Below are positions 3,814 to 28,072 of a stretch of 32,000 bases of DNA, piece after piece (the first letter of the stretch is position 1; each line of letters begins with the position of its first letter). This DNA comes from Halomicrobium mukohataei DSM 12286 (GTDB taxonomy: Archaea > Halobacteriota > Halobacteria > Halobacteriales > Haloarculaceae), in NCBI RefSeq assembly GCF_000023965.1, contig NC_013202.1:930001-962000 (forward strand). The letters are read 5' to 3'. The notes beneath the pieces are model-generated. The model ran no database searches and was not told the DNA's origin. It worked only from the letters and a program-made list of their open reading frames with translations. A program made the position numbers and the translations under genes.

Positions 3814-4038
3814 TCAGGTGGGGAGTGCGAAGACGAATCCGAGCAACACGAGCGGAACGGCGAACACCAGCGAGTACCAGACGCCGCCGACTGCCAGCAA
3901 CAGCCACGTCGACGCCCCGTAGCCGGTGGGATCCCAGTCCAGTCCCGCTCGTGGGAGCCCGAGCGCGGCGACGGCCGGGAGGCCGACGGCGTAGCCGATC
4001 GTTCCGACGACCGCGACGTCGATCAGGCTGTTGCTCAT
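3814..4038 (-). CDS. small membrane protein (2-3 TM)
   Basis: 74-codon ORF, hydrophobic, with G/C-rich third positions. Its only possible start codon lies inside the terminus of the family-2 repeat (CAT of CTCATACTGCC). Confidence 0.55.
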   Translation of the reverse strand: MSNSLIDVAVVGTIGYAVGLPAVAALGLPRAGLDWDPTGYGASTWLLLAVGGVWYSLVFAVPLVLLGFVFALPT

Positions 4039-4119
4039 ACTGCCGGCTGTAACTTCGTGAAGATCTTCGCCACCCCGGGGTGGCGAAATCGTTCACAGAT
4101 TTACAGCCGGTAGTATCAG
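4034..4119. repeat. family-2 palindromic repeat, full copy (a)
   Basis: CTCATACTGCCGGCTGTAA ... TTACAGCCGGTAGTATCAG flank an internal palindrome centred on TTCGCCACCCC|GGGGTGGCGAA. Confidence 0.8.
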
Positions 4120-7000: not shown

Positions 7001-7084
7001 TATAGTAACGATTGAAACGATTTACACACCGATCGCACTGCCGTCGCGCGATCGGGTGTGCATTAATTTTCAATGGCTACTACA
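7001..7084. mobile_element. family-1 MITE-like palindromic element, copy 1
   Basis: 84 bp including the flanking dinucleotides TA and CA. 76 of 80 core positions are identical to copy 2. It starts directly after the signal peptidase stop codon. Confidence 0.85.
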
Positions 7085-7164
7085 CTGTCGGCTGTACGTC
7101 TGTACAGAATTTCGCGATTCCGTGCTCGCGAATCTCCCGAAACAGTTACAGCCGGCAGTATGAG
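7083..7164. repeat. family-2 palindromic repeat, copy (b), left terminus interrupted by the family-1 element
   Basis: (TGA TA)CTGTCGGCTGTACGTCTG ... TTACAGCCGGCAGTATGAG, with an internal TTCGCGA/TCGCGAA stem. Lies between convergent genes. Confidence 0.75.
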
Positions 7165-7620
7165 TCACTCGGCGGGGTCGACGAGGCCGAGCTCGGCCAG
7201 ATCCCGGAGCACGTCCAGAGCGTGGCCGTCCGGCCGGACGCCCTCGTAGAGGCCGACGACGCGCCCCGCGGCGATGACGAACGTCGTCCGGGCCACGCGC
7301 CCGTCGTCGAGGGCAACGCCGAAGGCGTCGGCGATCTCACCGTCGGGATCGGCCAGCAGGTCGAACGCGAGGTCGTGGTCCTCGGCGAACGCGCGGTGGC
7401 CGTCCACGTCGTCGGTCGAGACGCCGTAGACGGGGATTCCGGCGTCTCGATAGGTGTCGTAGTGGTCGTCGAACTGGCGGGCCTGGGTCGTCCAGCCGGC
7501 GGCGTCGTCTCGCGGGTAGCAGTAAAGCACCGTCGCACCGCCGAAGTCGGGCTCGACGCGCTCGCCCCACTGGTTCCGGGCGCTGATCGCCGGGGCGTCC
7601 GAGCCCGTGTCGAGCACCAT
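7165..7620 (-). CDS. Bcp/AhpC-TSA (peroxiredoxin-fold) protein lacking the peroxidatic cysteine
   Basis: Collinear with Bcp, but the active-site stretch reads YPRDDAAGWTTQAR instead of YPKxxTPGCTxxAC. ATG at 7620; an alternative GTG at 7626 overlaps the hsp20 stop codon. Confidence 0.8.
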   Translation of the reverse strand: MVLDTGSDAPAISARNQWGERVEPDFGGATVLYCYPRDDAAGWTTQARQFDDHYDTYRDAGIPVYGVSTDDVDGHRAFAEDHDLAFDLLADPDGEIADAFGVALDDGRVARTTFVIAAGRVVGLYEGVRPDGHALDVLRDLAELGLVDPAE

Positions 7621-11248: not shown

Positions 11249-12088
11249 ATGAACGAGTCGATCGAGTCGAACATCACGACGCTGTCGGTCGACGGCGACG
11301 ACGTCACCGTCCGATATCTCACTGCCGGTGACGGACCGCCACTGCTCTTCTTGCACGGGATCGGACTCGACGCGGCGGCGGTGTCCGGCCGGTACGCGCT
11401 GCCCGCACTGGCCGAGGAGTACACCGTCTACGCGCTCGATTTCCCGGGCCACGGCGAGAGCGAGAAGCCCCGCCGAACGTATACGACGGACTACTACGTA
11501 GACACACTGTCGGCGTTCGTCGACGAACTCGGTCTCGCCGGCGCGAGCGTCGTCGGCGTGTCGATGGGTGGTGCGGTCGCGCTCGGCCACGCGCTCGACG
11601 GCGGTCGCCCCGAGCGGCTGGTGCTCGTCGACAGCTACGGCCTCGGTGCCGACGCGTACTGGCGGACCGGTGCCAGTCTCGCCCTCCGGATCCCGTTCGC
11701 GGACAGCCTGCTCTGGGGGAGCATGGGAACGCGCGCGGCGGTCCGGACCAGCCTCCGGACGATGTCCGGGGCGACCCTGCCGGACGAACTGGTCGACGAC
11801 GTGTACGAGACGATCTCACCGGCGACCATGCGGACGCTCCGGAGCTGGCAGCGCCACGAGTTCCAGGCCGACGGTCTCCGGACCGACTACACGGAACGGC
11901 TCTCGGAGCTCGACGTTCCGACGCTGCTCGTCCACGGCTCGGCGGACCCGCTGCTCCCGGTATCGTGGTCGCAACGAGCGAGTGAGCTGTTACCAGACGG
12001 GCAGTTCCTGGCGGCGGAGGGCTGTGGGCACTGGCCACACAGGGAACACCCAGAGCGGTTCAATCGAGCGGTAACGGCGTTTCTCTAG
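11249..12088 (+). CDS. alpha/beta-fold hydrolase
   Basis: LLFLHGIG, nucleophile elbow GVSMGG, and the C-terminal His in GCGHWPHREHP. Confidence 0.8.
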   Translation: MNESIESNITTLSVDGDDVTVRYLTAGDGPPLLFLHGIGLDAAAVSGRYALPALAEEYTVYALDFPGHGESEKPRRTYTTDYYVDTLSAFVDELGLAGASVVGVSMGGAVALGHALDGGRPERLVLVDSYGLGADAYWRTGASLALRIPFADSLLWGSMGTRAAVRTSLRTMSGATLPDELVDDVYETISPATMRTLRSWQRHEFQADGLRTDYTERLSELDVPTLLVHGSADPLLPVSWSQRASELLPDGQFLAAEGCGHWPHREHPERFNRAVTAFL

Positions 12089-17749: not shown

Positions 17750-17986
17750 TCAGAACTCCCGGCGCTCCAGGAAGAGGCCGGCCGCCAGCATGACCACGAC
17801 GAACGCCGCGATGGCTGCTACGAGTGCGATGCCACCCTCCTGCGTGAGGTCGCCGTTCGCTCCGTAGTTCGTACTCACGACGATCGTACCGGCGATGAAC
17901 AGCAAGACGGCGACGGCCGACAGCGCGATCTGCGTGACCGTCTCCCGATCGAGAGACATGCTCGTCCGTATCCCCGGGGCCGGCAA
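17750..17986 (-). CDS. small membrane protein (2 TM), hypothetical
   Basis: 78-codon ORF with two hydrophobic helices. Alternative ATG at 17959 (MSLDRE...). Confidence 0.5.
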   Translation of the reverse strand: MPAPGIRTSMSLDRETVTQIALSAVAVLLFIAGTIVVSTNYGANGDLTQEGGIALVAAIAAFVVVMLAAGLFLERREF

Positions 17987-18014
17987 AAGCGCTTCGAAGC
18001 CCGCGCCACCGGGG

Positions 18015-18648
18015 TCACAGCTCCTTGACGACCGTCGCCGGATTGCCGGCCACGACCACGTCCGAGGGCACGTCGTCGGTGACGACGGCTCCGGCGGCCA
18101 CGACCGCGCGGTCCCCGACGGTCACTCCCGGCGTCAGGACGGCCCGGCCGCCGATCCAGACGTGATCGCCGCCGGTCACGGGATCACCCATCTCCAGTCC
18201 GGCAGCACGTTCCTCGGCGTCCAGCGGGTGCGTCGCCGTGTAGGCGTGGACCCCGGGACCGAGCAGACAGTGCTCGCCGAACGTGATCTCACACACGTCC
18301 AGGAAGACGCAGTCGACGTTCGCGTAGAAATCGTCGCCGACGTGGACGTTGAAGCCGTAGTCACAGCCCAGCGGTGGCTCGACCGTCGCCTCCCCGACCG
18401 TCCCGAACAGTTCGTCGAGTAGTTCCCGACGGCGTTCCCGTGGGTCGGGCGGCGTCTCGTTGTACGCACTGGTCAGTTCGTCGGCTCGGCTGCGCCCCGC
18501 GACTATAGTAACAATTGAAACGATTTACACACCGATCGCAGTGCCGTCGTGCGATCGGGTGTGCATTGATTTTCAATGGCTACTATAGCTCCGGACCGCT
18601 GGGATCGTAGGCGTTCCCAGCGAGCATCTTCTCTAACTCCGACGGCAT
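18015..18648 (-). pseudogene. maa: maltose/galactoside O-acetyltransferase (hexapeptide-repeat, LbH family) disrupted by a MITE insertion
   Basis: The N-terminal 21 codons (MPSELEKMLAGNAYDPSGPEL) end at a TAG supplied by the element. The remaining 162 codons continue below 18504 in another frame. Removing 82 bp joins both parts into 183 codons collinear with Maa/LacA-type enzymes. Confidence 0.85.
18504..18587. mobile_element. family-1 MITE-like palindromic element, copy 2 (inside the acetyltransferase gene)
   Basis: TA-TAGTAACAATTGAAACG...TTTTCAATGGCTACTA-TA. Imperfect terminal inverted repeats, a second inner stem, and TA on both flanks. Confidence 0.9.
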
Positions 18649-18824
18649 CAGTACTCGTCGTCCAGTCGACCCTCTCGCTCGTCGATCTCGTCTAAGATGT
18701 CCAGCGTCTTGCGAACGGACGCTCGGATCGCCTCGCTGCGGTTGACGAACTTCCCCTCGTCGCCGACGTGCTTGTCCAGGTCGTCCAGTAGCTCCGCGGG
18801 CACTTCCACGCTGATCTTGGGCAT
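18648..18824 (-). CDS. ribbon-helix-helix (CopG/NikR-N-like) DNA-binding protein
   Basis: MPKISVEVPAELLDDLDKHV....NRSEAIRASVRKTL is a typical RHH_1 pattern. Its TGA overlaps the ATG of the acetyltransferase gene (ATGA). Confidence 0.8.
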   Translation of the reverse strand: MPKISVEVPAELLDDLDKHVGDEGKFVNRSEAIRASVRKTLDILDEIDEREGRLDDEY

Positions 18825-18848
18825 AGCTAGGGTAGGGACGCCGCCGCA

Positions 18849-18857
18849 CATAAAAAC
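18849..18857 (-). promoter_or_regulatory. TATA-box candidate for the RHH-acetyltransferase pair
   Basis: GTTTTTATG on the minus strand, about 29 nt upstream of the ATG at 18824. Confidence 0.35.
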
Positions 18858-18908
18858 GGGTTTCCGGCCCGGCCCACCACGAGCGTGTCGAGCGTCCCGC
18901 GTCGGCGG

Positions 18909-18939
18909 TCATACTGCCGGCAGCGTCAGTCTGCCGGCT
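18909..18939. repeat. degenerate family-2 repeat terminus, copy (d)
   Basis: TCATACTGCCGGCAG CGTCAGT CTGCCGGCT spans the tatCt stop codon (18926-18928). Only the terminal motif is recognisable. Confidence 0.35.
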
Positions 18940-21130
18940 CGGCACCCTCGGGTGCCCGTCTGCCACCGAGGGTGTAGAGCCACAGCACCCCGAGACCGAC
19001 GAGGAAGGCGATCGTCACCGGGACCGAGACGAGGAACATCGTGAAGATGCCCTTCGGCGAGAACAGGGCTCCGGCGACGAACACCCCGAGCGTGACGGTT
19101 CGCCAGCGGTCCTGGACCGACTGGAAGGTGATGATGTTCCCGCGGTGGAACAGCAACATCGTCACCGGGATCTCGAACAGCAGTCCGATCCCGACCGTCA
19201 GCGCGAGCACGAGCCAGCCGAACTTGGCGACGCGGTAGGAGATGATCATCCCCGACTGGAGCACGTCGAAGGCCAGCCAGGAGATCACCGTCGGGGCGAC
19301 GTAGGTGAACCCGACGAGGCTCCCGCCGACCATCGACGCGATGACGGTCCCGCTCCAGATCCCGAGCACGCCACGCTGACCGCCGACGAAGCCACGCTCT
19401 TTCAGCGCCGGCCAGGCGAAGTAGACGATCAGCGGTAACACCGACACCGCGCCCAGGATCGCGGAGAACTTCACGATGAAGATCAGGTGCTCGACCGGGT
19501 GGAGGTTGACGAACGTCACGTCGGCCCGCATCGACGGCGGGAGGTTGCTGACGAACGTGTTCCGGATGTCGCCGATGCCCCCGGAGTACAGGAAGACGAA
19601 GGCGGCCCCGGAGATCGCCATGAACGTGCCGACGAACCAGATCGCCTTCGAGGTCAGCGAGTCGAGGATGAAGGCGATGTCGTGGTAGTAGCCGCCGATG
19701 TCGTCCTCGGTGGTCTCCTCCTCGGTGAAGGCGTTCATCACGCCGGCCGTCGTCGAGGTGACCACGTCGGCGTCGTCCTCGTCGTCGTCCTCGGCCGCTT
19801 CGCCCGTGCCAGCCATCGTGTCCTGGGCGAAGTCCCAGCGTCCCAGGATCGCCTCGGCCTTGTCCGGGTTCCCGTCGTCCATCGCCGACTGGGCCAGTTC
19901 GAGCGCTTCCTGCTCTTCCATCTCTTGGAACCGCTGGACCGGCGCGCTCCGGACGGCACCGGCGCTCAGCGGTTCGATGTCGATGGCCGTCGGATCGCCG
20001 TAGTTGCCCGCTTCGGCGGCCGCCACGTCGAGGGCCTGGATCATGTAGTAGTACAGGACGACGACCGCAGCCACCAGTCCGAACACGGCTGCGATGGCGA
20101 TCGCGGTCGTCTCCGTTCCCAGTCCGAGCAGGTCCGGGCGAGCGACATCGCCGGTGAGCCGGTCGGAGGGGAACCACGCGGCGAACGCCCGGATGTACTG
20201 GAACGCGGGCGTCGCCAGCAGGTAGTACACCACGCCGCCGGCCACGACCGCCCCGGCGGCGAGCTTGTTCCAGCGCGTGCGTGCGACGCTCTTCGCACCG
20301 ACTTCCTCGCCGGCCCGCTTTGTCAACACCAGTATCTTCGAGATACCGAGGCTGACGACGTACAGCCCGACGAGCGGCAGCGCCCACATCACCTGCGTGA
20401 ACGGGTCCGGCGGCGAGAACAGCGCACCGAACCCGAAGATCAGGACCACCGCGACCCGCCAGCGGTCGCGGAACGTCTCGTAGGGGACGATGCCGGTGTA
20501 GCTCAGCGCACTCATAAACAGCGGGAGCTGGGCCGCCAATCCGAACGAGAAGCCAAGCAGCGCGACGAACCCGACCCACTTCGTGATCGAGTAGTCCGGT
20601 CGGAAGCCGGCGGCGTCGGCGTTTTCCGCCAGGAAGTCGAACATCAGCGGGAAAAAGAGGTTATAGGAGTAGAGGATCCCGCCGACGAACAGGCCGATAG
20701 CGATCAACAGCAGACTCCAGAGCTTCCACAGTGGCACCCTGTCGGCGGGCCACAGATCGCGTTCGCGCAGCGCGTCGCGGCTGTAGTAGATCAGGAAGGG
20801 GAGCGCGAGGAGGATGCCGATGACCGCCCCGATTTTCACCTGCAAGAGGATCACGTCGAAGGGCGTGACGGCGACGATGTCGGCCTCTTCGGCGGTCCGT
20901 TCGATCATGTCCGCCTTCAACCGATCCCACAGGAACTCCTGGAGCGCGTAGATCGTTCCGACGAGGCCGACGACCCAGACGATGAACACCTTCTGGAGGT
21001 GTTTTTGCGCGGCTCTGAGCATCGAGCCCATCGTCTCGCGGCCGCTCTGGACCGACCGCATCGTGTCTTCGTCGAGCCCCGTAGACATCTGGTCGGAGAC
21101 TTGCCGACTCTGCGTTATCAATTTGTTCAT
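18926..21130 (-). CDS. tatCt: twin-arginine translocase subunit TatCt (duplicated, about 14-TM TatC)
   Basis: 735 aa made of two TatC-like membrane domains joined by an acidic cytoplasmic linker, as in haloarchaeal TatCt. The ATG at 21130 (MNKLITQS...) is used; the longer ORF to 21640 is an Arg-rich shadow extension. Confidence 0.9.
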   Translation of the reverse strand: MNKLITQSRQVSDQMSTGLDEDTMRSVQSGRETMGSMLRAAQKHLQKVFIVWVVGLVGTIYALQEFLWDRLKADMIERTAEEADIVAVTPFDVILLQVKIGAVIGILLALPFLIYYSRDALRERDLWPADRVPLWKLWSLLLIAIGLFVGGILYSYNLFFPLMFDFLAENADAAGFRPDYSITKWVGFVALLGFSFGLAAQLPLFMSALSYTGIVPYETFRDRWRVAVVLIFGFGALFSPPDPFTQVMWALPLVGLYVVSLGISKILVLTKRAGEEVGAKSVARTRWNKLAAGAVVAGGVVYYLLATPAFQYIRAFAAWFPSDRLTGDVARPDLLGLGTETTAIAIAAVFGLVAAVVVLYYYMIQALDVAAAEAGNYGDPTAIDIEPLSAGAVRSAPVQRFQEMEEQEALELAQSAMDDGNPDKAEAILGRWDFAQDTMAGTGEAAEDDDEDDADVVTSTTAGVMNAFTEEETTEDDIGGYYHDIAFILDSLTSKAIWFVGTFMAISGAAFVFLYSGGIGDIRNTFVSNLPPSMRADVTFVNLHPVEHLIFIVKFSAILGAVSVLPLIVYFAWPALKERGFVGGQRGVLGIWSGTVIASMVGGSLVGFTYVAPTVISWLAFDVLQSGMIISYRVAKFGWLVLALTVGIGLLFEIPVTMLLFHRGNIITFQSVQDRWRTVTLGVFVAGALFSPKGIFTMFLVSVPVTIAFLVGLGVLWLYTLGGRRAPEGAEPAD

Positions 21131-21198
21131 CGCGCGAACGCTCCCGCCGGGACTGCGAAAAGAAAGTTTACAACAACGAGCAGCCAAGGGGGCCACAG

Positions 21199-22995
21199 AT
21201 GGGCGACCGCGACGGCGACGACGAGCGAGCCAGCGAGGAGCCGGGCGACTCCCACTCGGAGGAGTCCCCGGCCGACGAGCAGCAGGTACCCTCGTCGACC
21301 GCCGTCGACGCGAAAGCCGACGACGCGTCCGACGCGACGGAGGACTCGGTGGAGGACTCGGCGGACCACCCGGAAGACGAAGACGGAGCCCCCGACTCGG
21401 ACGACGATCCACAGGAGTGGTGGAAAGACCACGACCCAGAGAACGAAGTCGACGAGTCCGGCGACGACGAGGAGCTGTCGCCGGCCGCCCGCCGAGATCA
21501 GACGCAGGCACGCGGCGACGCCCGCCGGGCCGACGAGGCCGACGACTCGTCGGACGCCGACGATTCCGAGGACAGTGGGGCGGACGCAGACGACTCGTCG
21601 GACGCCGACGACGGTGATGCCGACGACTCGGAGGAGCCAAAGCAGGTCCACGCTCCCGGACCGACGCCGAAGGGGGGCGGTACTGCCGCCAGTGCGACGG
21701 CGCGGCCGACGCGCGATCGCGAACCGCCGTCGCCGCCGGACGACGTCGGGCCGTCGACGGCTCCCGACGACGAGGAGATGCCCCTGACCGAACACGTCGA
21801 GGAGATGGCGCTGCGGTTCCTGGCGGTCGGGCTCGTCATGTTCGGCGTCGCCGGGATCGTCGTGTTCTACGCCAACGACCTGATCAACTTCCTGTGGTAC
21901 TCGTTCCTGGGCGATCCGGCGCTCTGTCCCGGCCCGGACTGCGGTGTCAAGCCCCGCGTCTACCACCCGCTCTCGCTGGTGCTCGCGCGTCTGAAGGTGT
22001 CGACGCTGGTCGGGCTGATCATCGCACTGCCGGTGGGCGTCTACCAAACCTATCGGTTCATGCGCCCCGGCCTCTACCCCCGCGAGCGACGCTACTACCT
22101 CGCGGCCGTGCCCACGAGCCTCGTGCTGGCCGTCGTCGGCGTCGGATTCGCGTACTTCGCCGTGCTCCCCTCGCTCTTTGCCTACTTCACGGAGTACAGC
22201 GAACAGGCGGCGACGACGGCGTTCGGGCTGACCGAGACGTTCAATCTCATGGTCCTGATGCTCGGGTTCTTCGCGCTGGTCTTCCAGATCCCGCTGCTGG
22301 TGATGCTGGCGATCATGATGGGCGTGACGACCCGCCAGTGGCTCGAAGACCGCCGGCTGTACTTCTGGGGTGGCTTCGCCGCCGTCGCCTTCCTCTTTAG
22401 CCCGGACCCGACCGGGATGGCACCGCTGATCGTCGCGGTGACGATGATCGTCCTGTTCGAGGGGACGCTGACCCTGCTTCGCTGGACCGGCACCGGTTCG
22501 CCGATCCCGACGGCCGAGGAGGCCGCAGACCGCCGGCCGGCCGCCTACCTCGCCGCGGCGCTGGGCGGTTACGTCGCCAGTAGCGGCCCGATCCCGCCGG
22601 GCTACTACGACGCGCTGCCACAGGTCGTGATCGACCAACTCGCGAGTTCGGGTGGGCCGATCGCGACACCGGCGATCATCGCGGGTGCGCTGATCGCGCT
22701 GTTCGAGATCGGAGCCTTCCTGCTCAGGCGCTACGGCCGCTCGCGGCGGGCGCTCAAGGCACGCCTCGCGGTCGAAGATGCCCGGATCCCCGTCTGGCTC
22801 GGTGCGGTCGTCGTCGGCTACTTCGGGAGCCCGACGCCGACGCTCGTCACCGCCGCTCGCGATCTGGCCCTGTCGCCGACGCGGGCGGCGCTGGTCGGTG
22901 TCGGACTGGTGGTCCTGTACGAACTGTTCGTCGCCGTGCTTCGCTGGCGTGAGGGCGACGACGACGCCCAGACGCCGACGACGGACGAGGCCTAG
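21199..22995 (+). CDS. tatCo: twin-arginine translocase subunit TatCo with a long acidic N-terminal extension and extra C-terminal TM helices
   Basis: The TatC core runs from about residue 195 (MPLTEHVEEMALRF...) to about residue 430. It is preceded by about 190 Asp/Glu/Ser-rich residues and followed by about 165 residues containing about 4 hydrophobic helices. Divergent from tatCt. Confidence 0.8.
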   Translation: MGDRDGDDERASEEPGDSHSEESPADEQQVPSSTAVDAKADDASDATEDSVEDSADHPEDEDGAPDSDDDPQEWWKDHDPENEVDESGDDEELSPAARRDQTQARGDARRADEADDSSDADDSEDSGADADDSSDADDGDADDSEEPKQVHAPGPTPKGGGTAASATARPTRDREPPSPPDDVGPSTAPDDEEMPLTEHVEEMALRFLAVGLVMFGVAGIVVFYANDLINFLWYSFLGDPALCPGPDCGVKPRVYHPLSLVLARLKVSTLVGLIIALPVGVYQTYRFMRPGLYPRERRYYLAAVPTSLVLAVVGVGFAYFAVLPSLFAYFTEYSEQAATTAFGLTETFNLMVLMLGFFALVFQIPLLVMLAIMMGVTTRQWLEDRRLYFWGGFAAVAFLFSPDPTGMAPLIVAVTMIVLFEGTLTLLRWTGTGSPIPTAEEAADRRPAAYLAAALGGYVASSGPIPPGYYDALPQVVIDQLASSGGPIATPAIIAGALIALFEIGAFLLRRYGRSRRALKARLAVEDARIPVWLGAVVVGYFGSPTPTLVTAARDLALSPTRAALVGVGLVVLYELFVAVLRWREGDDDAQTPTTDEA

Positions 22996-23972
22996 GCGTC
23001 TTCGAGCGACGAGATTCTGGACACTTCGAACCGCGTCCCGGACGATTCTCCCGCCGACTGCTGGTCCGTGACCGCGATCGACCAGCCGTGCGCGTCGACG
23101 ATCTCGGCGACGATCGCCAGCCCGAACCCAGTTCCCGTGTCGCTGGTCGTGTACCCCCGCTCGAAGATCCGGTCGCGATCGGCCGGGCCGATCCCGTCGC
23201 CGTCGTCGGCGACGTAGAAGCCGTCGCCCTCGGGGAGGAGCCCGACCGTGACGGTCACGTCGTCTGCGGCGTGATCGACGGCGTTGACGAAGAGATTCGA
23301 GAGCAACCGGTCGAGCCGTCCGGGCGTGGTGGTGAGAGTCGCGTCGGCACGGACCCGAAGTCGTGCCCCGCCGGTGTCGATGCCCCGCCAGGCGTCTTCA
23401 CACACCGACGCCAGCGACACCCGCTGGGGCTCGTCGACGGTGTCGCCCTGTCGCGCCAGGGTCAGGAGGTCGTCGATCAGACGCTGCATCCGCTCGTGAG
23501 CGTCTGCGAGCCGATCGAGGTGGGACTCGTCGCCGGTCTCTCTGTACAGTTCGAGCTGCGTGATCGCGAGCTGGATCGGCGTCTGGAGGTCGTGTGAGAT
23601 GCTGCTGGTGAGCGTGTCGAGCCGCTCGCTCTGGCGTCGCAGTTCTCCACGGCCGTCGACCGCTTCGGGACTGCCGTCGACGAGCGCGTCGACGTGGTCG
23701 GCGAGCGCCGCCGTGGGATCCCCGTCGACGGCGACGCACTCGTCGACGACGCCGTCCGGGAGGTCGCTGGTCTCGGCGGCCAGCACCGTCACGGGGGCGT
23801 CTGCCAGGCGTGTCGCGTCTACTTCGCCGACGGGATCGACGACCACGACGGACGTACGGGGGTCGTCGAGAACGCGTTCGTCGGGTGTCTCCACTGCGAG
23901 CACCGACCCGGTGACGGCACGCTCGAAGGCGAGACCTCGCTCCTGTGGACCGACGTAGACGACCGGGGGCAT
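22992..23972 (-). CDS. sensor histidine kinase (HisKA + HATPase_c), soluble
   Basis: H-box SHDLQTPI, N-box LFVNAVDH, G1 DDGDGI, G2 GTGFGLAIV. The N-terminal roughly 100 aa are receiver-like without clear motifs. Confidence 0.85.
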   Translation of the reverse strand: MPPVVYVGPQERGLAFERAVTGSVLAVETPDERVLDDPRTSVVVVDPVGEVDATRLADAPVTVLAAETSDLPDGVVDECVAVDGDPTAALADHVDALVDGSPEAVDGRGELRRQSERLDTLTSSISHDLQTPIQLAITQLELYRETGDESHLDRLADAHERMQRLIDDLLTLARQGDTVDEPQRVSLASVCEDAWRGIDTGGARLRVRADATLTTTPGRLDRLLSNLFVNAVDHAADDVTVTVGLLPEGDGFYVADDGDGIGPADRDRIFERGYTTSDTGTGFGLAIVAEIVDAHGWSIAVTDQQSAGESSGTRFEVSRISSLEDA

Positions 23973-24063
23973 ATCCTGTCCGAGGTGACGCCGGTGCTAA
24001 ATGATTGGCGTTTTAATCTCGCATTTCTCTTGTAGGAAATATAAATGGCCCGGCGGAGCCGCC

Positions 24064-24933
24064 TCACTCTCCGGTCGGGTACTCAGTCGAGAACACGTCT
24101 TCGACGACAGCGTCGTCCTCGGGGTCGTCGTCGGGGCTCACGCTCCCGGTCTGGTAGCCGTGGAGATCCAGCGTCACGTGGTCGAAACCGAGATCAGCGA
24201 CGTGGTCGCGGGCGGCCCGGACGAAGTCGGGATCCAGCGCCACGTCGAGTTCGTCTTCGCCGACCTCGATGCGAGCGAGCCCGTCGTGGTCACGCACGCG
24301 GAACTGCTCGAAGCCCCACGTTCGCAGGAGCTGCTCGGCCTTCTCGACGCGAGAGAGCCGGTCCTCGGTCACTTCCAGTCCCGTGGGGATCCGGGAGGAG
24401 AGACAGGCCATCGAGGGCTTGTCGGCAACGGACAGGTCGTACTCGCGAGCGATCTCGCGGACCTCCTCTTTGGTGATGTCGTGTTCCAGCAGCGGCGAGT
24501 AGGCGTTCAACTCCTCGACGGCCCGGAGGCCGGGACGGTGCCCCTCGCCGGGGTCCGAGGCGTTGGTGCCGTCACAGACCACGTCGATGCCCAGCCGGCG
24601 GGCCTCGTCGTACATCGCCGAGAGGCGCATCGAACGGCAGTGATAACACCGTTCGTCGTCGTTGGCGACGAACGCCTCGCTGTCGAGTTCGCTGAACTCG
24701 ACGATCTCGTGGCGGATGCCGATCTCGTCGGCGACGCGGTTGGCGTCGACAAGCTCGGCTTCGGGGAGCGTCTCGCTCTTTGCGGTACAGGCGACGGCGT
24801 CGTCGCCCAGCGCGTCGTGGGCGAGTGCGGCGACGACGCTGGAGTCGACGCCACCCGAGAAGGCGATCAAGACGCCCTCTCGGTCGGCCAGATCGGCCCG
24901 TGCGGCGTCGAGCTTGGTCTCGACGGCAGTCAT
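24064..24933 (-). CDS. larE: PP-loop ATP pyrophosphatase, LarE-like sulfur transferase family
   Basis: PP-loop SGGVDSS, RCYHCR, DGTNASD, and PSMACLSSR with the conserved Cys. The ATG at 24933 is preferred. Confidence 0.8.
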   Translation of the reverse strand: MTAVETKLDAARADLADREGVLIAFSGGVDSSVVAALAHDALGDDAVACTAKSETLPEAELVDANRVADEIGIRHEIVEFSELDSEAFVANDDERCYHCRSMRLSAMYDEARRLGIDVVCDGTNASDPGEGHRPGLRAVEELNAYSPLLEHDITKEEVREIAREYDLSVADKPSMACLSSRIPTGLEVTEDRLSRVEKAEQLLRTWGFEQFRVRDHDGLARIEVGEDELDVALDPDFVRAARDHVADLGFDHVTLDLHGYQTGSVSPDDDPEDDAVVEDVFSTEYPTGE

Positions 24934-26698: not shown

Positions 26699-26750
26699 AA
26701 AAAATCGCGGTCTGGACGGGGGTCGTCCCAGACGTACAGCCGCGGTATCA
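26699..26750 (-). terminator. hairpin plus T6 terminator-like structure after orc1, built from a family-2 repeat arm (copy e)
   Basis: The minus strand reads TGATACCGCGGCTGTACGTCTGGGACGACCCCCGTCCAGACCGCGATTTTTT. The stem is GTCTGGGACG/CGTCCAGAC, followed by T6. The first 22 nt match the family-2 terminus. Confidence 0.5.
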
Positions 26751-27875
26751 GAGCCGTTCGAGGACGGCCTCGGGATCGTACTGCAGGGTGAGTTCCCGCG
26801 AGCGCCCGCGGCCGTCGACGTTGGTGTAGGTGGCCTCGATGACGCCCAGCTGGTCGAGCTTGTTGATGATCTCGGAGTAGCGGGTGTAGCCCAGGTCGGT
26901 CTGGTCGTTGAAGGCGTCGTAGATCTCGCCGGCCCGCTGGCCGTCGTGCTGGGCGATCACCTCCGCGAGTGCGGCCTCCGACTCCGACAGTTCCCGCAGC
27001 CGTCGCGAGAGATGGACGTACTTGGACTTGTCGTAGGCGTCTTCCACGTCCTCGCGCTCGACGGTGCGGGACGCTCGCATCTCCGCGTTCATCCCCGCTC
27101 GGCGGAGCAGGTCGATTCCCACACGGAGGTCCCCGCCCTGCTTGGCGGTGAGTTCGGCCACGCGGTCGAGCACCGTCGTGTCGACGACGCCGTCGTGGAA
27201 CCCGCGGTCGGCCCGCTCTCGCAGGATGCCGACGATCTCGGGCTCGTCGTACCTGTTGAAGTAGATCTCTTCGGGTCGGAAGACGCTCTGGACGCGCGTA
27301 TCGAGCGCGTCGATCACGTCCAGATCGAGGTCCGAGGAGATGCAGATGACGCCGATCTTGGCCCCAGAGTGAGCCTCGTGGGCGCGCAACAGCGAGTATA
27401 GCGTGTCGCTGGCTTCGGACTCGTAGAAGAGGTAGTTCACGTCGTCGAGTGCCACCACCAGCACCTCCTCGCGCTCGACGAGGCGGTCGGTGATCTGGGA
27501 GAACAGCTTCTTGAAGGAGATGCCGGAGGAGGGGGGCTCGTAGTCGAATATCTCGGCGAACAGCCGCGAGAAGACGGCGTAGCGCGTCGAATCGACCTGA
27601 CAGTTGACCCGCACCGCCTGCACGTCGGTCTGGGCGGTGAGTTCGTCGAAGAGGATCTGGGTCGCCGTCGTCTTGCCGGTGCCGGGCGGTCCGCGAGCGA
27701 TGACGTTCAGCGGGCGAGAGCCACGCACGGCGGGCCTGAGCGCGTACTTCAGGTTCTCCATCTGGCTCTCCCGGTGTTCGAACGTCTGAGGGACGTAGTC
27801 GATCTCGAAGACGTGCTCGTCCCGAAAGACGGACTCGTCCCAGGAGAGCATCCCCTCCTCCGGGTCGTCGCTCAT
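26748..27875 (-). CDS. orc1: Orc1/Cdc6-type replication initiator
   Basis: Walker A GPPGTGKT, Walker B VVALDDVN, sensor motifs, and a C-terminal winged helix. The ATG at 27875 (MSDDPEEG...) is used; the upstream ORF extension runs into a MITE copy. Confidence 0.95.
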   Translation of the reverse strand: MSDDPEEGMLSWDESVFRDEHVFEIDYVPQTFEHRESQMENLKYALRPAVRGSRPLNVIARGPPGTGKTTATQILFDELTAQTDVQAVRVNCQVDSTRYAVFSRLFAEIFDYEPPSSGISFKKLFSQITDRLVEREEVLVVALDDVNYLFYESEASDTLYSLLRAHEAHSGAKIGVICISSDLDLDVIDALDTRVQSVFRPEEIYFNRYDEPEIVGILRERADRGFHDGVVDTTVLDRVAELTAKQGGDLRVGIDLLRRAGMNAEMRASRTVEREDVEDAYDKSKYVHLSRRLRELSESEAALAEVIAQHDGQRAGEIYDAFNDQTDLGYTRYSEIINKLDQLGVIEATYTNVDGRGRSRELTLQYDPEAVLERL

Positions 27876-27988: not shown

Positions 27989-28072
27989 TATAGTAACAAT
28001 TGAAACGATCTACATACTGATCGCACTGCTGTCGTGCGATCGAGTGTGTACTGAATTTCAATGGCTACTATA
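27989..28072. mobile_element. family-1 MITE-like palindromic element, copy 3 (upstream of orc1)
   Basis: 84 bp with TA flanks. 71 of 80 core positions are identical to copy 2, and the same two-stem hairpin is kept. Confidence 0.85.

Follow-up and report, generated by a model that had tools for sequence, protein, structure and literature searches.

An 80-bp MITE Interrupts an O-Acetyltransferase Gene in Halomicrobium mukohataei and Belongs to a Widespread Haloarchaeal Family Associated with CTAG Targets

RESULTS

The acetyltransferase locus

The window analyzed here is a 32,000-nucleotide (nt) stretch of Halomicrobium mukohataei DSM 12286 (NC_013202.1, positions 930,001 to 962,000); all coordinates are positions in this window. 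On its minus strand lies a sugar O-acetyltransferase gene, hereafter maa, that an 80-bp palindromic noncoding element splits into two parts (Table 1). The ATG of maa, at 18648, shares bases with the TGA that ends the ribbon-helix-helix gene upstream (TGATG), and the reading frame that starts there encodes MPSELEKMLAGNAYDPSGPEL, which is 21 codons, before it stops at a TAG at 18585 to 18583. The element itself supplies this stop codon, as its first three bases. The 162 codons past the element lie in a frame shifted by +1 and lack a usable start codon. A preliminary description of this DNA had reported a minus-strand open reading frame from 18648 that ends at a TAG in the element terminus, and both the coordinates and the reading are exact. 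A polarity effect on the DUF7472 gene downstream of the pseudogene could follow from the interruption.

Table 1 Features of the split acetyltransferase gene, copies of the 80-bp element, and an unoccupied target in the window
Feature	Coordinates	Strand	Remarks
MITE copy A	7003..7082		TA at 7001-02; right flank CA
Unoccupied CTAG target	12085..12088		Overlaps the stop codon of the minus-strand MaoC-dehydratase gene
DUF7472 gene, downstream	17750..17959	-	55 bp past the pseudogene; conserved neighbor
3' fragment, pseudogene	18015..18503	-	Codons 22-183 plus stop (VAGRSRADEL...NPATVVKEL*)
Target-site duplication copy 2 (TA)	18504..18505
MITE copy B	18506..18585		80 bp; TIRs 18506-18520 and 18571-18585; inner GC-rich hairpin ~18528-18563
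Target-site duplication copy 1	18587-18586		TA of codon CTA, final two bases of the 5' fragment
5' fragment, maa-like pseudogene	18586..18648	-	Codons 1-21 (MPSELEKMLAGNAYDPSGPEL); Pfam Mac is residues 7-58 of the reconstruction
Ribbon-helix-helix (CopG-type) gene, upstream	18648..18824	-	Partner gene conserved in every orthologous locus
MITE copy C	27991..28070		CTA/TAG flanks; intergenic, upstream of orc1/cdc6

The junction in the window reads GAG-CTA-[element-TA]-GTC. When the 82 bp comprising the element and one TA were deleted in silico, the result was an uninterrupted frame of 552 nt, made up of 183 codons and the terminal stop codon. Because the sequence ACTATAG is repeated at both ends of the element, there are three adjacent positions at which the cut can be made, and all three give the identical product.

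The reconstructed protein

The reconstructed protein was compared with profiles, structures, and homologues. The Pfam Mac domain (PF12464) matched residues 7 to 58 over the entire profile (positions 1 to 53 of 53; E = 4e-18), a match that spans the junction only once the 82 bp are removed. Hexapep and Hexapep_2 of Pfam also matched the reconstruction. The NCBIfam model for maltose O-acetyltransferase, PRK10092, matched over all 183 of its 183 positions with 248.8 bits, and among maltose acetyltransferases in the PDB the E values ranged from 2e-69 (2ic7) to 1e-58, with residues 1 to 182 of 183 covered and no gap at residues 21/22. Thus, aligned to the profiles of the Maa/LacA/NodL family, the protein matches end to end without a gap at the junction, and the earlier proposal that removal of 82 bp restores a collinear 183-residue protein holds in each of these comparisons.

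The homologues agree with the profiles. In 120 of them (179 to 222 amino acids, ~100% coverage) there was not a single insertion or deletion within residues 18 to 26, and the dipeptide at the junction, Leu-Val, was present in 103. Of the alignment columns, 65 are at least 95% conserved, and the reconstruction has the conserved residue in every one of them. Its motif ...GVHAYTATHPLD... aligns to the same motif of 2ic7 and 6ag8; the His of the conserved hexapeptide-acetyltransferase motif is catalytic. Like the known members of the Maa/LacA/NodL family (PDB 1ocx, 2ic7, and 1kqa), with which it is collinear over all 183 residues, the reconstruction has the N-terminal Mac cap, the hexapeptide repeats of the left-handed beta-helix, and the ...YTATHPLD... 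histidine motif. The difference is that the window copy is interrupted and most likely dead.

The score of 248.8 bits does not reach the equivalog cutoff for maltose O-acetyltransferase, which is 314 bits, and the LacA model gave 139 bits against a cutoff of 347. Because the score falls under the equivalog cutoff, we file the protein as a family member without an assigned sugar substrate. Judged by these alignments, the reconstruction is a member of the Maa/LacA/NodL family, its sugar specificity being unproven.

Authenticity of the disrupted allele

CP045142.1, a complete chromosome, and a Logan contig of SRR017869 both match the window at 100% identity, and the exact truncated allele is found on four contigs in all, from independent assemblies. 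Assemblers can misplace short repeats, and the Logan contig runs from the gene side 25 bp into the element and ends there, as might be expected if a repeat had been collapsed into the gene. Such an assembly or sequencing artifact is scarcely conceivable, given that the identical allele appears in CP045142.1, in the four contigs of separate assemblies, and in the Logan assembly of SRR017869, and that a diverged form of it is present in the independent draft of Halomicrobium katesii.

The 80-bp element and its relatives

Three copies of the element (A, B, and C; Table 1) are present in the window, where shuffled sequences predict none; thus, the element is not a product of chance. The TIRs of copy B, the copy that lies in maa, are TAGTAACAATTGAAA and TAGTAGCCATTGAAA, which match at 13 of 15 positions. 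Copy A lies 2 nt past the TGA of an open reading frame for an S26-like peptidase and abuts a different small palindromic element.

A pattern scan of genome contigs, with one genome for each prokaryotic species, returned at least 120 stretches; because the pattern forced the conservation of the TIRs, the TIR columns in these data are uninformative. Among the matches listed, about 30 were from H. katesii DSM 19301, many were from Haloarcula species, and some were from Natronosalvus, Natronoglomus, and a Halovenus MAG. BLAST placed the element at 210 sites on 56 haloarchaeal plasmids, almost none of them overlapping annotated genes; the host genera include Natrinema, Haloarcula, Natronorubrum, Haloterrigena, Natrialba, Haloferax, and Halobellus. 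The element is spread at high identity across at least three families of Halobacteria. There was no copy among the haloviruses of the phage collection.

The copies are strongly alike in length and sequence. In 125 of the 130 copies measured, the element is exactly 80 bp long. A consensus built from 116 copies shares 98.75% identity with copy B, and against copy B the copies, which come from different genera, have a median identity of 95%. The whole element forms a hairpin (z = -5.3 as DNA and -8.8 as RNA), and as RNA it is predicted to fold into a long, plain hairpin with a free energy of -58 kcal/mol. The inner stem covaries: there were 51 double-change cells versus 16.7 in shuffles, and none of 500 shuffles reached the observed number, although related sequences can beat every shuffle without any structure. 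At the inner-stem pair 28-52, 59 copies have CG and 25 have UA; at pair 31-49, 73 copies have UA, 19 have CG, and none is unpaired. This covariation may mean that the hairpin is required for transposition, but it may equally reflect a few events that were inherited by subfamilies.

By its features, then, the element is a MITE: it is short and noncoding, has TIRs and a TA duplication, occurs in dispersed copies, and has filled and empty orthologous sites.

Empty sites at the orthologous loci

The nearest intact orthologue of the disrupted gene (P0001; 183 amino acids, 87% identity) occurs in three genomes and one metagenome contig, its sources being labeled Halomicrobium sp. IBSBa / H. mukohataei. 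A second intact orthologue, with 76% identity, was found in another metagenome contig. The window and all the orthologous loci share the gene order TatC-RHH-Maa-DUF7472-PriL-PhaB-PhaC-PhaE. In DNA alignments, all five syntenic loci (L001 to L005) have a gap of exactly 82 columns opposite the element and its TA. The maa site is therefore empty in these five loci and filled in the window and in H. katesii. With the TIRs, the TA flanks, and the multicopy family, these empty orthologous sites bear out the original suggestion that a MITE splits the O-acetyltransferase gene.

At the junction, the relatives with empty sites read GAG-CTG-GTG. Because they have CTG where the window has CTA, the target in the window lineage would have been CTAG, created by a lineage-specific synonymous change of CTG to CTA. 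An uninterrupted allele bearing TA or CTAG at this position had no matches in two metagenome scans, one exact and one codon degenerate. The preliminary description held that the locus shows a TA target-site duplication directly. A TA duplication does fit the arithmetic of the reading frame and the flanks of the family as a whole, but "directly" goes too far for this site, because the relatives have CTGG and no TA-bearing empty allele was found.

A reciprocal case is located elsewhere in the window. The CTAG at the end of the MaoC-dehydratase gene is empty in the window, whereas in the sister lineage (L001 to L003) it is filled by the same MITE. The copy in L001 to L003 is degenerate, and the site reads AGC-TA-[element]-TT-GAG.

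Target preference

We examined the flanks of 120 independent copies. TA was present on both sides in 109 of them, 195 of the 240 half-sites had C at position -3, and a full CTAG target could be reconstructed for 78 of the 120. A TA duplication combined with a preference for CTAG is the classic signature of IS630. In haloarchaea CTAG is strongly depleted, and a conserved orphan m4C methyltransferase acts on it. The window itself has 5 CTAGs, versus ~99 expected from its base composition, which is a depletion of about 20-fold. Because CTAG is so scarce, insertions are funneled to a few sites, stop codons (TAG) included.

Age of the insertion

The locus of H. katesii DSM 19301 (L024) aligns to window positions 17781 to 24067 as a single uninterrupted block of 6.3 kb with 97.6% identity. 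The element is there as well, inserted at an identical position and orientation, and 2 of the 82 bases differ. The maa gene of H. katesii also has a 1-bp deletion at codon 69, a frameshift that, in a draft assembly, could be a sequencing error.

To compare constraint on maa with that on its surroundings, we calculated substitution rates for maa and for five neighboring genes. Between the window and H. katesii, maa has 12 synonymous (Sd) and 15 nonsynonymous (Nd) differences, giving dS = 0.09, dN = 0.038, and ω = 0.42. The corresponding values for the five neighbors are 0.03 to 0.09 for dS, 0 to 0.007 for dN, and 0 to 0.10 for ω. The dN of maa is raised 5- to 30-fold relative to that of its neighbors, and the difference between maa and the pooled neighbors is significant (Fisher test, P = 1e-4). 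When the changes were polarized by the intact orthologue, dN was found to be elevated in both lineages. Compared with the intact orthologue, the window copy has ω = 0.175 and dS = 0.37, the dS of the neighboring genes being 0.08 to 0.20. The ω of 0.42 also differs from strict neutrality (binomial P = 0.04). Because it is less than 1, part of the divergence may predate the inactivation, or the disrupted allele may have recombined between the lineages. Decay at the conserved residues was expected in the window genome as well, but none was found (0 of 65 columns deviate); decay is evident only as the raised dN and as the H. katesii frameshift.

Because the two genomes share the insertion at 2.4% divergence, and because constraint on the gene is relaxed, the insertion appears to be older than their split. 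Most likely it predates the split of the window genome and H. katesii, or occurred around it, and came after the split from the IBSBa-type lineage. The insertion had previously been called recent; with a relative 2.4% diverged that shares it, and with relaxed constraint at ω = 0.42, this is an overstatement and is true only in a relative sense.

The shared allele need not be ancestral if the same CTAG was hit independently in the two lineages or if the disrupted gene passed between them by homologous recombination, in which case the insertion could be younger. Haloarchaea exchange DNA often, and rare CTAG targets channel insertions to few sites. In addition, ω between the two MITE-bearing alleles is 0.42 and not ~1, the window copy is undecayed at conserved residues, and the high dS of maa relative to the intact orthologue hints that this segment has a separate history. 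We nevertheless think a nonancestral allele unlikely: the position and orientation are identical, the 2 differences in 82 bases are about what the surrounding locus has, identity is uniform through the site along one 6.3-kb block, and dN is raised in both lineages after polarization. Inheritance from a common ancestor remains the reading that we prefer.

Inactivation of the gene

An internal TAA of the element (18527 to 18525) closes the frame of the 3' fragment, which is open from 18524. In this frame the first ATG, GTG, or TTG is a GTG at 18296, which would give a stub of 93 amino acids without the Mac domain. The public gene call is a protein of 169 amino acids that starts from ATC at 18524 and whose first 7 residues (IVSIVTI) are encoded by the element. 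Because translation stops after 21 residues, and because the 3' part is shifted and has no start codon, the disrupted gene is a predicted null allele.

Function could be retained if the 82 nt were spliced out, perhaps like an archaeal intron of the bulge-helix-bulge type, or bypassed, or if a promoter and a start codon within the AT-rich element allowed the 3' fragment to be expressed. The reconstructed frame and all the conserved residues are intact in the window genome, a very stable RNA hairpin would bring the two halves of the gene together, and gene callers do predict the 169-residue product that begins in the element. However, Rfam gave no matches anywhere in the window, and no bulge-helix-bulge motif is present in the predicted RNA fold; the stem has a 1x1 mismatch and a 2x2 internal loop at its base, not the 3-nt/4-bp/3-nt arrangement. 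Because the fold is a plain hairpin and has no Rfam match, splicing or another form of rescue is unlikely. As for expression of the 3' fragment, the called open reading frame requires an ATC start, and a protein begun at GTG 18296 would lack the Mac domain as well as half of the beta-helix. The dN of 5- to 30-fold over the neighbors and the frameshift in H. katesii are also what is seen in a dead gene. Taken with these points, a functional gene is very improbable, and we treat the locus as a pseudogene.

Search for a mobilizing transposase

We looked for an autonomous IS630-type partner in the DNA that flanks more than 120 copies, ~1.2 Mb in all, and found none. Across the fetched loci there were no pairs of TIRs 150 to 3,000 bp apart enclosing a transposase, and isolated TIRs, which were also checked, yielded nothing. 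No transposase open reading frame recurred near the copies in the fetched DNA. In the same DNA there was no match to an approximate mariner transposase query with phmmer or to a regular expression for the DDE_3 motif of the YSPxLNPxE type. Part of this DNA was 100 kb from a plasmid of H. mukohataei JP60 and 50 kb from Natrialba magadii pNMAG01, and their annotation listed no partner transposase. The gaps in that annotation proved to hold an rRNA operon and an IS1595-like remnant. Because no transposase with matching termini was found, the link to IS630 is based on the behavior of the element at its target sites.

DISCUSSION

Comparison with known elements

Stowaway-like elements are the eukaryotic MITEs of the IS630/Tc1-mariner type. 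A bacterial example of an IS630-dependent MITE is MITEEc1_IS630 (entry cited in PMC11602168). The 80-bp element resembles IS630/Tc1-mariner MITEs in being tiny and noncoding, with TIRs, a hairpin that takes in the whole element, a TA duplication, and a preference for CTAG, and also in being dispersed, mostly intergenic, and present or absent at orthologous sites. It differs from them in lying at the very short end of their size range, in having an unusually fixed length, and in reaching at least three families of Halobacteria with high identity, and its dependence on IS630 is an inference.

The haloarchaeal MITEs in ISfinder, MITEHsal1-14 of Halobacterium salinarum and HqIRS35-39 of Haloquadratum, are 120 to 520 bp long, make duplications of 5 to 10 bp, and belong to the ISH4, ISH8, ISH9, and ISH11 classes (PMC7002104, PMC3119063). 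Like the 80-bp element, they have strain-specific insertions and create pseudogenes, and their mobilization in trans would be a further likeness; none of them is assigned to a TA-duplicating class. A name for a TA-duplicating, CTAG-targeting family of 80 bp was not found in the literature searched, which consisted of general catalogues.

Another possible counterpart is HqIRS41, which was described in Haloquadratum walsbyi C23 as a small mobile repeat of type SMR-B; it is 79 to 80 bp long, is noncoding, and has ITRs matching at 17 of 21 positions (Dyall-Smith et al. 2011, PMC3119063). It was reported to duplicate no target and to be unrelated to any transposon, and its mobilization was termed enigmatic (PMC3119063). 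HqIRS41 and the 80-bp family, compared here by description alone, are both haloarchaeal, about 80 bp long, and noncoding, with inverted termini. HqIRS41 may belong to the same family; where a TIR itself starts with TA, a duplicated TA beside it would be easily overlooked.

Mobilization of the element

IS630-type transposons have been catalogued in Haloquadratum (ISHwa7, 1146 bp; Table S8, PMC3119063). Because the element has a TA duplication and a preference for CTAG, and because IS630-type transposons exist in haloarchaea, we infer that it would be mobilized in trans by a DDE transposase of the IS630/Tc1-mariner type.

It is also conceivable that the 80-bp family is not, or is not only, a passive IS630-dependent MITE, and that it is moved by another enzyme or has a structural role as a hairpin that serves the host or itself. 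The partner transposase was absent from the 1.2 Mb around the copies, the median identity is 95% across genera, the inner stem covaries, and 125 of 130 copies share the one length of 80 bp; HqIRS41, also 80 bp long with ITRs, has no recognized target duplication and is mobilized in a manner termed "enigmatic" (PMC3119063). Several points weigh against this reading. The partner was sought in the flanks of the copies only, the conservation of the TIRs was imposed by the scan pattern, the covariation at three pairs is explicable by a few events inherited by subfamilies, and the likeness to HqIRS41 is by description alone. IS630 is classically marked by a TA duplication and a preference for CTAG, and a role apart from IS630 is for us an unlikely explanation. 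One form of it, to which we give slightly less credence again, is that the element is moved by an unrecognized enzyme, or that its spread is coupled to CTAG methylation or avoidance, and that it may be the same as the 80-bp SMR-B of Haloquadratum.

Proposed history of the locus

With IS630-type mobilization as the preferred mode of movement, the history of the locus would be as follows. A synonymous change of CTG to CTA would have created a CTAG in this lineage. An 80-bp MITE, moving by cut-and-paste with an IS630/Tc1-mariner-type DDE transposase acting in trans, would then have entered the TA of that CTAG at codons 21/22, with duplication of the TA. The TAG at the terminus of the element ends translation after 21 residues. 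The insertion would have taken place in the common ancestor of the window genome and H. katesii DSM 19301, after the Halomicrobium sp. IBSBa-type lineage had split off. From then on the gene would have drifted under relaxed constraint, H. katesii gaining a frameshift and the window genome no second lesion. We regard the account as a whole, that is, a MITE in the CTAG of a maa-type gene, a duplicated TA, a null allele, an insertion in the common ancestor with H. katesii, and IS630-type mobilization, as highly probable.

Implications

The split gene is an ordinary pseudogene made by a MITE, an event of a known kind. Pseudogenes made by MITEs are well documented in haloarchaea (PMC3119063, PMC7002104), and current concepts are unchanged by these results. 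The MITE family behind the insertion is of mild to moderate interest.

For annotation, the locus is a MITE-disrupted pseudogene, as opposed to the public "acetyltransferase" of 169 amino acids with its seven codons of transposon origin. For the organism, the acetyltransferase has been lost in this lineage of Halomicrobium and in H. katesii and has been kept in the IBSBa-type sister lineage, and the insertion site in maa is a simple marker that separates these lineages. For the element, the data define a widespread family of haloarchaeal MITEs with a TA duplication and a CTAG target.

Filled and empty target sites in the two lineages

The MITE's preferred target, CTAG, is ∼20-fold underrepresented in the window as a whole, with only 5 sites in 32 kb. 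Base composition predicts about 99 sites and a Markov model about 31; for comparison, GATC occurs 285 times. One CTAG overlaps the stop codon of a MaoC-dehydratase gene, and this site is reciprocally polymorphic: the window has no insert, whereas the sister lineage (L001 to L003) carries a degenerate copy of the 80-bp MITE. In L001 and L003, base 1 of the MITE is G instead of T, which restores the TAG stop of MaoC in its original place; the MaoC ORF of L002 runs for 4 codons inside the MITE and then meets TGA.

The maa pseudogene (window 18015-18648) has a dS of 0.37 relative to its intact orthologue (L001 6001-6552), and the genes flanking maa have dS values of 0.08 to 0.20. Because maa exceeds its neighbors even though the region as a whole is ∼95% identical, this segment may have had a separate recombination history.

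MITE copy C lies in an intergenic region that is probably origin proximal. The longest mechanical ORF of the adjacent orc1/cdc6 gene enters the element.

Other small palindromic elements

The window also contains a second palindromic family of ∼83 bp with the terminal inverted repeat (TIR) ATACTGCCGGCTGTAA, for which there were 41 matches in the fetched loci (e.g., L001 to L004 at ∼5645). Its usual flanks are TCA or TGA, which suggests that it duplicates 3 bp of target. One member adjoins MITE copy A, whose right flank is CA, not TA. Another is present in the TatC-RHH spacer of the sister lineage but absent there from the window.

Composites of 163 bp occur where a third type of small palindrome, TACGGAAAGTTGTAGG...CCTACAACCGTCCGTA, sits within the right TIR of the 80-bp MITE; the target duplication of this third element is TCA, and its central hairpin is similar to that of the 80-bp family. 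On Natrialba magadii plasmid pNMAG01 (L131), an 80-bp MITE subfamily has changed TIRs, TAGTAACACCTGCAA...TTGCAGTGGCTACTA, and keeps both the exact length and the terminal TAGTA.C.

Coordinates of elements and associated features
Feature	Locus	Position	Remark
∼83-bp element	Window	4036-4118	
∼83-bp element	Window	7085-7166	
Empty CTAG target	Window	12085-12088	
orc1/cdc6	Window	26748-27872	Minus strand
MITE copy C	Window	27991-28070	∼120 bp upstream of orc1/cdc6
Degenerate MITE, MaoC site	L001	12467-12550	
Degenerate MITE, MaoC site	L002	12469-12548	
Degenerate MITE, MaoC site	L003	12467-12550	
163-bp composite	L051	1614-1776	
163-bp composite	L105	4044-4206	
Altered-TIR MITE	L131	3944-4023	
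Altered-TIR MITE	L131	45211-45290	

Orientation of the inner hairpin loop

Among the 92 unique copies of the 80-bp MITE in alignment A4, some have CGACAGCAG in the inner-hairpin loop (columns 36 to 44) in place of the usual CTGCTGTCG. Because CGACAGCAG is the reverse complement of CTGCTGTCG and the asymmetric arms of these copies keep their orientation, the pattern suggests that the loop was inverted by recombination or template switching inside the palindrome.
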